Under the pieces are notes generated by a model that had not been told where the DNA came from, did not search any database, and saw only the letters and a list, made by a program, of their open reading frames with translations. From a virus (lineage: Duplodnaviria > Heunggongvirae > Uroviricota > Caudoviricetes), in the IMG/VR virus record IMGVR_UViG_2534681653_000013: DNA of 5,405 nucleotides; one strand, given 5' to 3'. Shown piece by piece: positions 1 to 5,405 of this stretch (positions are counted from its first letter, which is position 1; every line of letters starts with the position of its first letter). The translations under genes and the position numbers were made by a program.

Positions 1-212
1 TCAGCACCTGAATCCGCGATTATCACATATACCTGGTTGCTGATTGCCCCTCCGCACAGGGGGATTCACCATGCGAAATTTTTTTAACAAACGCTCAGCA
101 TGTCAGGCAACATTCAACTGCCTGAATTGTGAGGCATTTAACATTTCACTGTCCGGTGTCTTTCCTGTAATAAAAAGCCCGCAAAAGAGAGTCAGGGCAG
201 ATAAGTGTGGTG

Positions 213-289
213 TGGCGCGTTGTACTGGATTCGGACCAGTGACCGATTGCTTAGAAGGCAATTGCTCTGTCCGGCTGAGCTAACAACGC
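213..289 (-). tRNA. tRNA-Arg, anticodon UCU (reads AGA)
   Basis: Hand-folded minus-strand cloverleaf: acceptor GCGTTGT/ACAACGC, D-stem GCTC/GAGC, anticodon stem ATTGC/GCAAT with loop CTTCTAA, T-stem ACTGG/CCAGT, discriminator G, encoded CCA. Same layout as E. coli argU. T-loop reads TCCGAAT (C at position 55). Confidence 0.75.
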
Positions 290-302
290 TGAATACCGAT
301 AA

Positions 303-379
303 TGGACCGCCATCGGGGACCCGAACCCCGCGCAACCAGCTTCGAAGGCTGGCGCTCTGTCCTGATGAGCTAATGGCGG
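303..379 (-). tRNA. tRNA-Arg, anticodon UCG (reads CGA/CGG)
   Basis: Hand-folded minus-strand cloverleaf: acceptor CCGCCAT/ATGGCGG, D-stem GCTC/GAGC, anticodon stem CCAGC/GCTGG with loop CTTCGAA, T-stem CGGGG/CCCCG, encoded CCA. T-loop reads TTCGGGT (G at position 58). Confidence 0.7.
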
Positions 380-388
380 TATGTGATA

Positions 389-464
389 TGGTGGCCCTTG
401 CTGGATTTGAACCAGCGACCTGGCGATTATGAGTCGCTCGCTCTCACCACTGAGCTAAAGGGCT
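389..464 (-). tRNA. tRNA with anticodon CAU (Ile2 lysidine-type like ileX/ileZ, or elongator Met)
   Basis: Hand-folded minus-strand cloverleaf: acceptor AGCCCTT/AAGGGCC (A1:C72 mismatch), D-stem GCTC/GAGC, anticodon loop CTCATAA, T-stem GCTGG/CCAGC with canonical T-loop TTCAAAT, discriminator A, encoded CCA. Overall resembles E. coli ileX as I recall it. Confidence 0.75.
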
Positions 465-626
465 GGGCGCAGGATAATAACGGTACGTAACTAATCCTGC
501 AATATCATCCGTTCTGACTGACTAAATCCTGAACTTCCCTGACCGTCTGCTCAAAACGTTCAGTCTCCAGCTCAACGCCAATTGCACGACGCCCCAGCGA
601 CATTGCTGCTTTGACGCTACGGACAT

Positions 627-655
627 AAAAAAGCCAGCCACTGGGGGAGGCTGGC
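627..655 (-). terminator. Intrinsic terminator on minus strand (candidate tR' of the late operon)
   Basis: Minus strand reads GCCAGCC-TCCCCCAGT-GGCTGGC followed by TTTTTT: a perfect 7-bp GC-rich stem, 9-nt loop and T-tract, about 255 nt downstream of the Q stop. Confidence 0.6.
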
Positions 656-726
656 AAACTCGTAGAGCAAAATGCTGTTACGCAAACTTCGTTACAGGGT
701 CATCCTGCAATACAAAAAATACACAA

Positions 727-756
727 TATTTAGAAAACTAATAGTGCCATGTGCAA
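727..756 (-). promoter_or_regulatory. Candidate sigma70-like late promoter (PR'-like) between the two terminators
   Basis: Minus strand TTGCAC, an 18-bp spacer, then TAAATA; the start site would lie about 70-90 nt upstream of the 627-655 terminator. Weak match, alternatives exist. Confidence 0.2.
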
Positions 757-835
757 TTTTTAAGATTTTGTTATTAATTGTGGTCGCACCTTCCTTTCTG
801 TGTACTTTCCGTATAGCTCACAGGATTCTGGGTAC

Positions 836-858
836 AAAAAAACCCGCGCATCGGCGGG
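836..858 (-). terminator. Intrinsic terminator-like hairpin about 50 nt downstream of Q
   Basis: Minus strand reads CCCGC-CGATGC-GCGGG followed by TTTTTTT: a 5-bp GC stem, 6-nt loop and 7-T tract. Confidence 0.5.
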
Positions 859-908
859 TTAATAAGCAGCGTGGCAATGTAACCACTCTTATCATGATAT
901 GCAGATTT

Positions 909-1343
909 TTACGATCGTAAACTATTTTTTCGCTGATAAAATACAGAGGTTCTCCCTCCCGGCAATTCACGCTCAACATACCGATCCATCTCAAGCCTCA
1001 CTCCCAGCATCATCAGCATGCCTTCAACAATCCCCTCCGCTTTGTGAAGGCGTTTACCTATACAGGTGTCAGAGCACCCATGTTTCCGTGCCAGCGCCAT
1101 GAACGTCTCCCCCAACACGTAATAATCAACCAGCAAGTCATGCAGATCGCGATTGTTCCGGTAAAGGCGGGCTATACACCCGCATATCACCATCGCATCA
1201 TCGTCACAGCACTGCGGGCGTGATTTTACTTTTTCGGGGATCAGTCCCTTAAAACCGGCGGCAATGGACGACCAGGTCACATCTTCATGATTATTAGCCG
1301 CCCACGCTCCCCAACGCTCAAGAACCATCTGAATATCACGCAT
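909..1343 (-). CDS. quuD: Late-gene antiterminator Q (quuD/Q933-type), 144 aa
   Basis: Track ORF 909-1358; I place the start at the ATG at 1343 because GGAG lies 7 nt upstream (the track's TTG at 1358 is less likely). Translation [24 protein letters not shown]... matches my memory of DLP12 QuuD / 933W-type Q. Cysteine clusters (QCCDDD, CGC, GCSDTC) fit a zinc-binding Q. Sits directly after the nin-type genes. Confidence 0.88.
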
Positions 1344-1389
1344 CAACTTACTCCACAAAAATCAGACCAGAACGCCAATTACAAGCAAA

Positions 1390-1415
1390 AATCAACAAAA
1401 CAGTATTAGTTGATT
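1390..1415 (-). terminator. Weak AT-rich hairpin with T-run between ylcG and Q (possible leaky terminator)
   Basis: Minus strand AATCAAC-(12 nt loop)-GTTGATT followed by TTTTGC; the stem is AT-rich, so predicted stability is low. Confidence 0.2.
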
Positions 1416-1428
1416 GTTATCTCTGACT

Positions 1429-1569
1429 TCATACTCCTGCTCCTGTCAGGGTTTTGGCGTAATTCTTCAGTATTCGGTAATCGGTCAAAACAGAACCGGG
1501 GAAACGATATAAGCGCAGACGCCCCCAGCGGTGGCGAAGAAGTTCTGCCATATTAAACTCAAACATCAT
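1429..1569 (-). CDS. ylcG: Small protein YlcG-like, 46 aa
   Basis: Hand translation: [46 protein letters not shown]. Its ATG overlaps the rusA stop (ATGA). Position between rusA and Q matches the K-12 DLP12 order. Below the track length cut-off. Confidence 0.6.
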
Positions 1570-1928
1570 TCATTCCCCATTTCGGTGATGGTCAGTTCCA
1601 GCCTCCCACCTTTGGTAACAGGCATCTTCACAACGCGGTAATCAACGACCTGAGCATCATCCAGCCAGAAACCTGCTTTAGTGAGTGCGTCAAAAGCGGC
1701 TTTTTGCAGATTATCCAGGTCACGGCGACGGCGATCCGGCATGTGGCACTCAATGCGGATTTTCACAGGCATAGCCAGGCCGATATCCAGCATTGCGTTT
1801 TTAATGATTCGGGCGACGTTATCGCGGTATGCCTGCCCCTCTGCACTGACGTGCGTGCGCCCGCGATTATGGCGGTAATAGCGATTATTGCTCGGAGGCC
1901 AGGGTAATGTGATACTGTAGGTATTCAC
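1566..1928 (-). CDS. rusA: Holliday-junction resolvase RusA, 120 aa
   Basis: Track ORF; translation [26 protein letters not shown]... with the acidic [18 protein letters not shown] region typical of RusA. GTG start at 1928 overlaps the ybcO stop (GTGA). Confidence 0.92.
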
Positions 1929-2215
1929 GCCTTAATAACCCCCTCTTTCAGCCAGATAACCTGTGTTCTCGCCATACCTTCCAGCGCGCATTCTTTTGCA
2001 TATGCAGCATCGACAAAATGTGTGCGGCGGTCGATTTCGTCGTGGCAGGCAGAACATGCAATGGTGGCAATCAGGTCTGGCGGTTTGATACCGGTACCGC
2101 ACAATCCAGCCAGCCGGATATGTGCCAGTACAGACGTTTCAGAATTGCCATTACATACGCCAGGGATTCTTACCTGGCATTCCCGACCACGCGCTGCTTT
2201 TCTCAAATCAGCCAT
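1925..2215 (-). CDS. ybcO: YbcO-like (DUF1364) Cys-rich putative nuclease, 96 aa
   Basis: Track ORF 1925-2254 trimmed to the ATG at 2215, which has AGGAGG 5 nt upstream. Translation [24 protein letters not shown]... carries conserved Cys/His. Its start overlaps the ninE 3' end by 8 nt. Confidence 0.85.
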
Positions 2216-2378
2216 GATTCCTCCTTGCTGCCAGTCGCAACCATTTTTTATCAACCAGGCTAGCGGTATATCCGAGCAGTGTTGGTATTTCGGATGGCTT
2301 CAGCTCAGGCTTACGCTTACGACGATTTGATACTCTGTAGATGTGTCCGTTCATGACACGAATAAGCGGTGTAGCCAT
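2208..2378 (-). CDS. ninE: NinE-like small basic protein, 56 aa
   Basis: Hand translation: [56 protein letters not shown]. Its ATG overlaps the ybcN stop (TAATG). Below the track length cut-off. Confidence 0.75.
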   Translation of the reverse strand: MATPLIRVMNGHIYRVSNRRKRKPELKPSEIPTLLGYTASLVDKKWLRLAARRNHG

Positions 2379-2833
2379 TACGCCTCCTGCTTGTCACGGA
2401 GCTGCTGGAACTCGCAGCTCTGCGGAATAGTCAGATGGCAACCAATATTCATCGCCCAGGCTTCAACCTTACACAGGAAGACATACATCTCTCCGGTATC
2501 AAGATCGGAGGTATGGCGTAACGACTGGATAGTGGTGATATCACCGGTTACGACATCAACCAGGTCTTTGGTTTCATAACCGAGATATGTGTGTTTGAGA
2601 GCATCTTTTACCCAAGCTGGAGTGGCGAACGTTTTACCCCTGCTGATGAGGTATTCACTGATTTCGCTGTACCACATGTGGCTGAGTGCATTCTGGGAAA
2701 GACTGCGTTTCTCACGCCACGGTTTAAGCACCATGCGAAAGCATTTGCCCTCCTCCAGATAAGGCTGGATCTGCCGACCGATAGCGGTGAAGTTGCCGCG
2801 ATGTAATTTGATGCCGTCTTGTGAGAGGTTCAC
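2378..2833 (-). CDS. ybcN: YbcN / NinB-family recombination (DNA base-flipping) protein, 151 aa
   Basis: Track ORF; GTG start at 2833 preceded by GGAGGTG with a 4-nt spacer. Translation [30 protein letters not shown]... matches my memory of DLP12 YbcN. Confidence 0.9.
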
Positions 2834-2931
2834 GCTTCACCTCCGCAGAGGTCAAACGCTAGATGCAAAGAATTGCAGGTGCATTTCTGCATCTGTGAAG
2901 GGAGAAGAGAGTTTGGATTGTATGTGCGCAT
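2830..2931 (-). CDS. ylcH: Small ORF YlcH-like, 33 aa
   Basis: Hand translation: [33 protein letters not shown]. Its stop overlaps the ybcN GTG start (GTGA); GGGGA lies upstream of the ATG. Position matches ylcH in K-12 DLP12. Short, so coding status is uncertain. Confidence 0.5.
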
Positions 2932-2954
2932 AAACGTCCCCGTTTAGCGCAGAA

Positions 2955-2983
2955 GTCACCGGAGTTGTTCAGGCTCCGGTGAC
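2955..2983. repeat. Perfect 10-bp palindrome GTCACCGGAG-N9-CTCCGGTGAC
   Basis: Read directly from the sequence. Lies in the ybcM-ylcH intergenic region, immediately downstream of the candidate -10 at 2987-2992. Confidence 0.6.
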
Positions 2984-2986
2984 ATA

Positions 2987-3015
2987 ATTATGCCGTGTTG
3001 ATTTCCCAAAATCAA
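2987..3015 (-). promoter_or_regulatory. Candidate sigma70 promoter for the ylcH-ybcN-ninE-ybcO-rusA-ylcG-Q block
   Basis: Minus strand TTGATT (-35, 3010-3015), 17-bp spacer, CATAAT (-10, 2987-2992). The predicted start site falls within the right arm of the adjacent palindrome. Confidence 0.3.
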
Positions 3016-3047
3016 AATCGATAGAATTGCTCCTTCTTAAAACACTT

Positions 3048-3845
3048 TTACTCTCTGGAAGCTTTTCTTATCTCTCTTGGTGTTATATTAAAACGATTAT
3101 GAAATCTTTCAGTAAAACGCGAAGGACACTTATAACCATTTTCTCTGGCAATCTCGCTTATAGGTTTTACCGTCGTTTGTATAGCAGACAACGCATTATT
3201 TAACCTCACATCGTCCAGTATACTTTGGAAACTTACCCCCTCGCTTGCTAGACGGCGATGTAATGTAGAAACAGAAATGTAGAGATATCGAGCAACCTTG
3301 TTTGCTGTCCATTTTGTGCCGGGTTCGGATAGCAGCAGGTTATAACAACGACTTATCAATGATTGTTTACTATATGATAAAAGTAAATGATTAACATGAT
3401 TCACTCCTAACGAAAGTAGAACGCCCATTGCTAAGTGCTCCTGAATTTTAGTTGAGAAGCCTCGGGAAACAGATGTTTTTAGTTGCTCCCAACAATATAT
3501 TAACTCAGGATTCTGAGGTAAAAAGAAACTTGTTTTGTTACGTATTTGATCAGTTACCGTATAAAGCTTTTGGAAACTCTCAATTAAATCAATGGGTAAG
3601 TAAAGCATTTCTGCAAGATAAAGCCCTGCTTCAGGATAATTCTCAATATAAAATTCATAACCACAAGGAAATAATATTATTTGATTATTATCAACAGTTA
3701 AAGTATGCGTCTCCCAATTGATAACTTTCTTTCCCTGACGGATACGACACAAAGCTGGCATAAGAGGCTTAACCCTATGAATCTCATGATGTTTATGCAT
3801 CCGTATTTCTTCGATCTTTAAGTTAGTCTTACCTCTTGCCAGCAT
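3048..3845 (-). CDS. ybcM: AraC/XylS-family transcriptional regulator YbcM, 265 aa
   Basis: Track ORF; ATG at 3845. The C-terminal region ([43 protein letters not shown]...) looks like a tandem AraC-type helix-turn-helix. Visibly AT-rich coding sequence. Confidence 0.88.
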
Positions 3846-3854
3846 ACTCTCACC

Positions 3855-4406
3855 CTACTTTATCTCATAAACTGGTGTTATCTCAGCGGTTGCGATTTTA
3901 TTAGCATTAAGCATATAACCAACTAACGCTCCGCTGGAGTTAGAATCTACAGGAATCTTTTCAGTTTTTAGAGCCCATACTTTAAACTGGTAATGATGTG
4001 GTTTATCTCCTTTAGGAGGACATGCGCCACCAAACCCAGCATAGCCAAAATCATTTCGGCCTTGAACAGCACCAGTCGGCAGTTTTGTTCCATCACGTCT
4101 CCCTGCATCAACGGGCAAATATGTTACTGTTGCTGGAATATTAACAACAGTCCAATGCCACCAACCACTGCCTGTAGGTGCATCTGGATCATATACAGTT
4201 ACGGCAAAGCTTTTGGTACCTTCAGGAACACCAGACCAGGTTAATGAGGGCGATGTATTACCACCTTCACACCCAAATCCAGAAAAGACATGAGACGTTG
4301 TAAGTTGCTCTCCTGTTTTTATTTCATTACTAGCGACCTGAAATGCTGCAGCCTGCGCAGAAAATGTTATGAATGCCAATACAGTTGAAACGATAAGTGT
4401 TTTCAT
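3855..4406 (-). CDS. ybcL: Periplasmic PEBP-family protein YbcL, 183 aa
   Basis: Track ORF; ATG at 4406 with AAGAGG about 6 nt upstream. N-terminal signal peptide MKTLIVSTVLAFITFSAQAAA. PEBP/YbhB-family motifs YDPDAP and GDKPHHYQF. Stop is 9 nt upstream of the ybcM ATG. Confidence 0.9.
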   Translation of the reverse strand: MKTLIVSTVLAFITFSAQAAAFQVASNEIKTGEQLTTSHVFSGFGCEGGNTSPSLTWSGVPEGTKSFAVTVYDPDAPTGSGWWHWTVVNIPATVTYLPVDAGRRDGTKLPTGAVQGRNDFGYAGFGGACPPKGDKPHHYQFKVWALKTEKIPVDSNSSGALVGYMLNANKIATAEITPVYEIK

Positions 4407-4622
4407 AAAAACCTCTTTGTTATGACCTATCGTTATTTTATTTGATATTCCTTTATCTCATTATGCATAAAGGCGCAATGTTCATGCAAAAGCAATCACA
4501 ATTGTACCCCCAACCCAATTATTTGCCACAATATACACAAAGCACATTGATACTATCTAAAAACTCTGCTTTATTATTAGTAATACCTACGAAAGTCGGT
4601 GTTATTTTTTAACCTACCATTC

Positions 4623-4672
4623 AAAATACGTGACATACACCATTTTGCTCATAATAATTTGTCACGTATTTT
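4623..4672. repeat. Perfect 13-bp inverted repeat AAAATACGTGACA-N24-TGTCACGTATTTT
   Basis: Read directly from the sequence. Sits in the AT-rich intergenic region upstream of ybcL; candidate operator or paired half-sites. Confidence 0.5.
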
Positions 4673-4870
4673 CAGTATTTGAATCTGCGACCAAGAGTTC
4701 TCACCTAACAAATGATTAAGATTGTATAGCTCATTTACTACCCCAATACAGCCGTACAAAACTCGCTTGTGGGAGCAAACAAAGTAATTACCCATTAAGT
4801 TTCGTTAAAGATAATTAATTCTGTCTTGCACTTTATCATCATAGCATAACTTAAAATCCGAGATCATTAT

Positions 4871-5329
4871 TTAGAAATAAATCTCACCATCAACCATATA
4901 TTTGAGAGCACTTATCGCCTGCTGGGCAGATATTACTTTCATTAAAGGATAGTGTTTAAAAACAATGCCATTCATAAAATAGATATCACAGGTTTTATTA
5001 TCCGTATTAATTATGATTTTTTCGAATATTTTATAGGCAAGTGTACGGCATAACTCTCGTCCATTTTTACTGGTTAAGTCAATAGCATAAAAATCACTGA
5101 ATGAATTTACACCTTTACTCTTCAAAGTTTTCAATGATACCGAAGCCCTTCGTAATTCCTTATCTAATAGTCTTATTTTCTCTGCTATAGCGGTAACTTC
5201 AGGCGCGACAGACAATGCAACGATTAAATTATTAATTTTCATCTGAAGCTCAATAATTTTTAACTCTAAAGTTTCATTAGCATCTTTCTTGTTTTCAACT
5301 GGTTGAATTTTGCTACAATTAAAAAGCAA
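4871..5329 (-). CDS. Recombinase-like ORF, 152 aa as tracked; possibly the C-terminal part of a disrupted ybcK-like serine recombinase
   Basis: Track ORF starting at TTG with no convincing Shine-Dalgarno at TTG 5329 or the internal ATG. Predicted coiled-coil stretch followed by a C-terminal region that resembles large-serine-recombinase C-termini (impression only). In-frame TAA at 5363-5365 closes the frame upstream, while a different frame is open from the window edge to about 5267. Confidence 0.4.
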   Translation of the reverse strand: MLFNCSKIQPVENKKDANETLELKIIELQMKINNLIVALSVAPEVTAIAEKIRLLDKELRRASVSLKTLKSKGVNSFSDFYAIDLTSKNGRELCRTLAYKIFEKIIINTDNKTCDIYFMNGIVFKHYPLMKVISAQQAISALKYMVDGEIYF

Positions 5330-5405
5330 TTCTGAACCGCCCCGGGTTTCCTGGAGAGTGTTTTATCTGTGAACTCAGGCTGCCAGATCATCGTTTCCGA
5401 TGGAA

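Follow-up and report, generated by a model that had tools for sequence, protein, structure and literature searches.

Probable disruption of the prophage recombinase gene ybcK by IS629/IS1203, and not by a frameshift, in a lambdoid prophage sequence

Results and Discussion

The 152-aa recombinase-like open reading frame (ORF) at the right end of the window (the whole 5,405-nt stretch of viral DNA analyzed here) is very probably an insertion pseudogene remnant, left where a copy of IS629/IS1203 disrupts ybcK, and not the outcome of a frameshift. We propose that a 1310-bp copy of the element would separate ybcK codons 355 and 356 and share the orientation of the gene. A C-terminal remnant of YbcK, presumably promoterless and made up of the residues after the zinc ribbon (356-508), would then abut the right terminal inverted repeat (IRR) and the last nine transposase codons, and the window would end 73 nt into the element.

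The ybcK Remnant and Its Breakpoint

Positions 1-5332 of the window match many Escherichia coli O157:H7 chromosomes as one gapless 5332-nt piece with ∼99.98-100% identity. The matched region is a lambdoid prophage comprising Q, ylcG, rusA, ybcO, ninE, ybcN, ybcM, ybcL, and ybcK, all on the minus strand of the window, and in those genomes ybcK is intact and encodes a 508-aa "recombinase family protein" (WP_000709082.1). Aligned with the prophage copy of strain TW14359, which has an intact ybcK and served as reference for the gapless alignment, window positions 2100-5332 contain one mismatch (5028) and no gaps. The ybcK match reaches to 5332, where codon 356 has its first base, and no further; beyond this point the window and intact ybcK are unrelated.

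The 3' remnant of ybcK thus delimited (4871..5332, minus strand) comprises codons 356-508 and the stop codon, and its gapless match to the intact gene ends at 5332. It is identical to YbcK residues 356-508 at 152 of 153 positions, the sole substitution being T457I, which arises from the nucleotide difference at 5028. This position is the only nucleotide difference from the TW14359 copy, and the I457 allele is also found in a draft contig (GCA_024911915.2). Judged by its translation, the 152-aa ORF (4871..5329, minus strand, first codon TTG) is YbcK residues 357-508, with Leu357 as its TTG "start", so that the earlier note was right to see in it part of an inactivated large serine recombinase of the YbcK type.

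Intact YbcK has the Pfam domains Resolvase (PF00239, residues 4-161), Recombinase (PF07508, 191-284), and Zn_ribbon_recom (PF13408, 302-357), which together mark it as a large serine recombinase. The 152-aa ORF has no match to any Pfam family. The N-terminal resolvase catalytic domain (PF00239), which bears the serine nucleophile, is not present in it, and the recombinase domain and zinc beta-ribbon (residues 191-357), both upstream of the breakpoint at residue 356, are absent from the remnant. Lacking all three, the remnant would be unable to act as a recombinase and is best regarded as a pseudogene fragment; on sequence grounds the window piece is a fragment of a member of the large serine recombinase family rather than a functional member.

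The IS629/IS1203 End

The right-hand 73 nt of the window (5333..5405, minus strand) are the end of an IS629/IS1203 element of the IS3 family and are 100% identical to the end of a 1310-bp element at the equivalent locus of E. coli O157:H7 strain F7386 (NZ_CP038360.1, 3090269-3093109). The transposase has the orientation of ybcK, and the element continues off the window edge. Positions 5325-5405 match at 24,656 places, chromosomal and plasmid-borne, across 4,068 of 5,426 E. coli genomes, a pattern that marks an insertion sequence. The terminal inverted repeat IRR (TGAACCGCCCCGGGTTTCCTGGAGA, 5333..5357, plus strand) begins TGAACCGCCCCGGG... and agrees at 22 of 25 positions with the reverse complement of the other end of the F7386 element. 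It is the only IS terminal end in the window, and at 5333-5357 it has the 5'-TG...CA-3' end with imperfect inverted repeats of the IS3 family, as far as can be seen from one end. Further inward (5375..5404, minus strand) are the last nine codons and stop of OrfB, SIGNDDLAA*, with TGA at 5377-5375; the 296-aa OrfB of F7386 ends in the same residues. On the ybcK side, the element is bordered by ATTC (5329..5332, plus strand), a 4-bp target sequence of which F7386 has a copy at either end of the IS. Target duplications of IS629 in O157:H7 are 3-4 bp long, and 62% of its copies there reside in prophages (PMC3271280).

The F7386 locus, which we examined in detail as one of six that carry this junction, contains the whole element. 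It is annotated as 'IS3-like element IS1203 family transposase, programmed frameshift', is 1310 bp long with the ends TGAACC...GGTTCA (inverted repeats 22/25), and encodes orfA (108 aa, with HTH_Tnp_1) and orfB (296 aa, with HTH_21 and rve), which are annotated as a coding sequence joined by a programmed frameshift; of these the window holds the last nine OrfB codons only. The F7386 element is flanked by a 4-bp ATTC duplication, reading ...GCAATTC, then the IS, then ATTCATTAATG..., and the undisrupted target in intact ybcK reads GCAATTCATTAATG. Beyond the far side of the element lie ybcK codons 1-356, and RefSeq labels the recombinase piece on the near side "incomplete; missing N-terminus", a pseudogene. 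The window stops inside the IS; the far junction of this copy, with a second ATTC and the N-terminal part of ybcK, would fall beyond position 5405. Simple insertion would place ∼1237 more nucleotides of IS629 to the right of 5405, with an IRL ending ...GGGGCGGTTCA. By analogy with F7386, that other IS end is probably followed by another ATTC and by the first 355 codons of ybcK.

Reading Frames across the Junction

Three-frame translation of the minus strand from 5405 recovers the layout that was described in the earlier note. The frame of the 152-aa ORF is closed upstream by the TAA at 5365-5363 that the note reported and also by a TGA at 5377-5375 that was missing from its account. A second frame, as it had noticed, is open from the right end of the window (5403) to a TAG (5268-5266), a length of 46 codons within which sits a 41-aa ATG ORF (5266..5391). 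The two frames overlap by 64 nt, inside the ∼60-100 bp that had been estimated; by coordinate arithmetic the 152-aa ORF is indeed offset by -1 from the second frame, which is one base ahead, and the A5 run is present at 5321-5325.

The interpretation placed on this layout fares differently. The earlier note offered a frameshift as the mechanism, that is, an inactivated or programmed-frameshift recombinase in which ybcK would pass from one frame to the other by slipping 1 nt near the A5 run. Two overlapping open frames offset by -1, with the run inside their overlap, are what such a slip would leave, but the upstream frame is IS629 DNA rather than ybcK, and intact ybcK has no similarity to the window past 5332. 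A single alignment that changes frame within 5267-5365 had been suggested as a check; the alignment to intact ybcK is gapless, stays in one frame and ends at 5332. The A5 run is ordinary ybcK sequence of the same length and position in the intact gene of TW14359 and in F7386, which removes it as a slippage site. With no frame switch, no indel and no homopolymer change relative to intact ybcK, neither defining mark of a frameshift is present, and we give that hypothesis practically no chance of being correct.

What lies upstream of the remnant is instead unrelated to recombinases, namely the IS, with the transposase C-terminus in the frame of the ORF, and the second open frame differs even from the transposase frame; a match to an unrelated protein upstream was among the outcomes that the note itself would have counted against its reading. 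The transposase end and the ybcK remnant share a frame by coincidence, and this together with their common orientation explains the two upstream stops, of which the one at 5377-5375 is the transposase's own and both are within IS DNA. Among the alternatives that had been listed, two separate genes came closest. The second frame, with its 46 codons, is no longer than A+T-rich DNA would yield by chance. It (5266..5403, minus strand) crosses the IS/target junction at 5332/5333 and is out of frame in both the IS end and the ybcK DNA, and therefore it cannot be an evolved gene and exists only as a by-product of the insertion.

A further possibility is that the 152-aa ORF functions as a stand-alone gene, yielding, for example, a coiled-coil fragment by way of read-through out of the IS. 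In its favor are an unbroken ORF and an IS transposase whose direction of transcription is that of the ORF. Inspection of both candidate starts, TTG 5329 and ATG 5242 (the latter giving a 123-aa version), nevertheless revealed no recognizable AGGAGG-like sequence upstream of either, in agreement with the earlier remark that the ORF has no good Shine-Dalgarno sequence, and when 4400-5405 were scanned for promoters and terminators, the minus strand had no promoter-like site near the junction. The ORF is cut off from the transposase frame by two stops. A contig look-up by product returned no gene on record that encodes the exact 152-aa product, and the sole record of the 123-aa version is a gene truncated by the end of a draft contig inside ybcK (GCA_024911915.2). 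RefSeq, moreover, calls the equivalent piece in F7386 a pseudogene. A functional stand-alone gene is accordingly an exceedingly improbable reading. We had also considered IS-driven expression of the ybcK remnant, which was dropped given that the same scan contains no outward minus-strand promoter-like site at the junction; the remnant is probably not expressed.

Distribution and Origin of the Junction

The junction is already known from complete genomes. Positions 5325-5405 are 100% identical (81/81 nt) in six complete O157:H7 genomes, in which an IS1203 transposase is annotated beside a partial recombinase family protein and the IS-split ybcK carries a RefSeq pseudogene annotation. We found no report of this insertion site in the literature on IS629 and ybcK together. 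The six genomes hold, in addition, an intact copy of the TW14359 type, and their junction is in a paralogous prophage. Aligned with positions 5538-6081 of the F7386 locus, window positions 4862-5405 have eight differences, all within 4865-5147, and 5148-5405 are 100% identical. The combination seen in the window, the junction with ybcL and ybcM downstream, was found in none of the 5,426 complete E. coli genomes and in none of the phage records. Because the junction is absent from these sources in the prophage background of the window, a rearrangement, a prophage exchange or an assembly join is possible as its origin.

The junction may have arisen when an IS inserted independently at this very nucleotide or when two prophages exchanged homologous DNA; an assembly join through the shared stretch of 185 nt is a less likely origin. 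All eight differences being at or below 5147, the comparison implies that an insertion hit the same site or that a crossover took place within 5148-5332. It is conceivable, although we consider it unlikely, that the junction is real and did not come from a simple local insertion, having been brought about by recombination or gene conversion between paralogous prophages, with a crossover within 5148-5332, or by a rearrangement between IS copies; the N-terminal part of ybcK need not then adjoin the far side of the IS. Consistent with this, the same junction occurs in the paralogous prophage with the distribution of differences just described, the two prophage types are ∼98% identical over P-ren-emrE-ybcK, and the TW14359-type prophage has a further IS629 end ∼1.4 kb upstream of ybcK beside a truncated P. 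An independent insertion at the same site would look alike, however, in a window that ends at 5405, and an IS end abutting ybcK codon 356 is explained equally well under either origin. Taken by itself, the junction shared between two paralogous O157:H7 prophages may record homologous exchange, with a crossover in 5148-5332 that carried the IS across, a suggestion we make tentatively and at somewhat below even chances; the alternative to such an exchange is a strict IS629 hot spot in which the same nucleotide was struck twice.

The window could also be an assembly chimera, in which ybcK is in reality intact and the IS end was misjoined through the 185-nt stretch 5148-5332 shared with the IS-disrupted paralog. 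The absence of the junction plus ybcL/ybcM combination from 5,426 complete genomes would fit, as would the presence of an intact TW14359-type copy in each of the six genomes with the junction, and the draft contig with the same I457 allele breaks inside this very stretch. Assemblers, however, usually halt at such branches, as happened in that contig, instead of crossing them, and a misjoin appears very unlikely. We retain IS629/IS1203 insertion into ybcK as the explanation of the disrupted gene.

Other Features of the Prophage

The further IS629 end in the TW14359 copy occupies positions 1-44 of that locus, is from the IRL side in the opposite orientation and abuts the truncated P; a second IS629 copy so near ybcK in this type of prophage could take part in rearrangements. 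At the left of the window, three tRNA genes (213-464, minus strand) follow downstream of the Q antiterminator: Arg-tct, Arg-tcg and one with a CAT anticodon, which is assigned to Met by ARAGORN and to Ile by RefSeq. Stx-type lambdoid prophages typically have such a tRNA trio downstream of Q. The TW14359 annotation shows no stx genes in the ∼4.5 kb beyond the tRNAs. Between Q and the tRNAs, a 50-aa ORF (505-657, minus strand) is the remnant of a DNA methylase and is a partial pseudogene in TW14359 according to RefSeq.

Implications and Comparison with Known Systems

For annotation, neither the 152-aa nor the 41-aa ORF should be called a gene, and we suggest the label "ybcK pseudogene fragment beside IS629 end". 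IS629 insertions in prophage genes of O157:H7 are common and well described, and they serve in strain typing; the IS629-ybcK site could likewise be a lineage marker. The identical junction in two prophage backgrounds is only a mild curiosity, and the importance of the finding is otherwise small.

Among the closest relatives of the window are the O157:H7 prophages with intact ybcK (WP_000709082.1), itself the ortholog of ybcK in the DLP12 prophage of K-12. They share with it ybcL, ybcM, ybcN, ninE, ybcO, rusA, ylcG, and Q, and differ in that their gene is uninterrupted, whereas the window keeps codons 356-508 only, with T457I. F7386 and the five other genomes resemble it in the opposite respect: their junction is nucleotide-identical, with the same IS end, orientation and ybcK breakpoint at codon 356, but the prophage around it is a paralogous one without ybcL and ybcM downstream and with the eight nucleotide differences in 4865-5147. 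In its general character the element agrees with IS629 as described from O157:H7 prophages, an IS3-family element that is mainly prophage-borne, inactivates genes and leaves duplications of 3-4 bp (Rump et al. 2011, PMC3271280).
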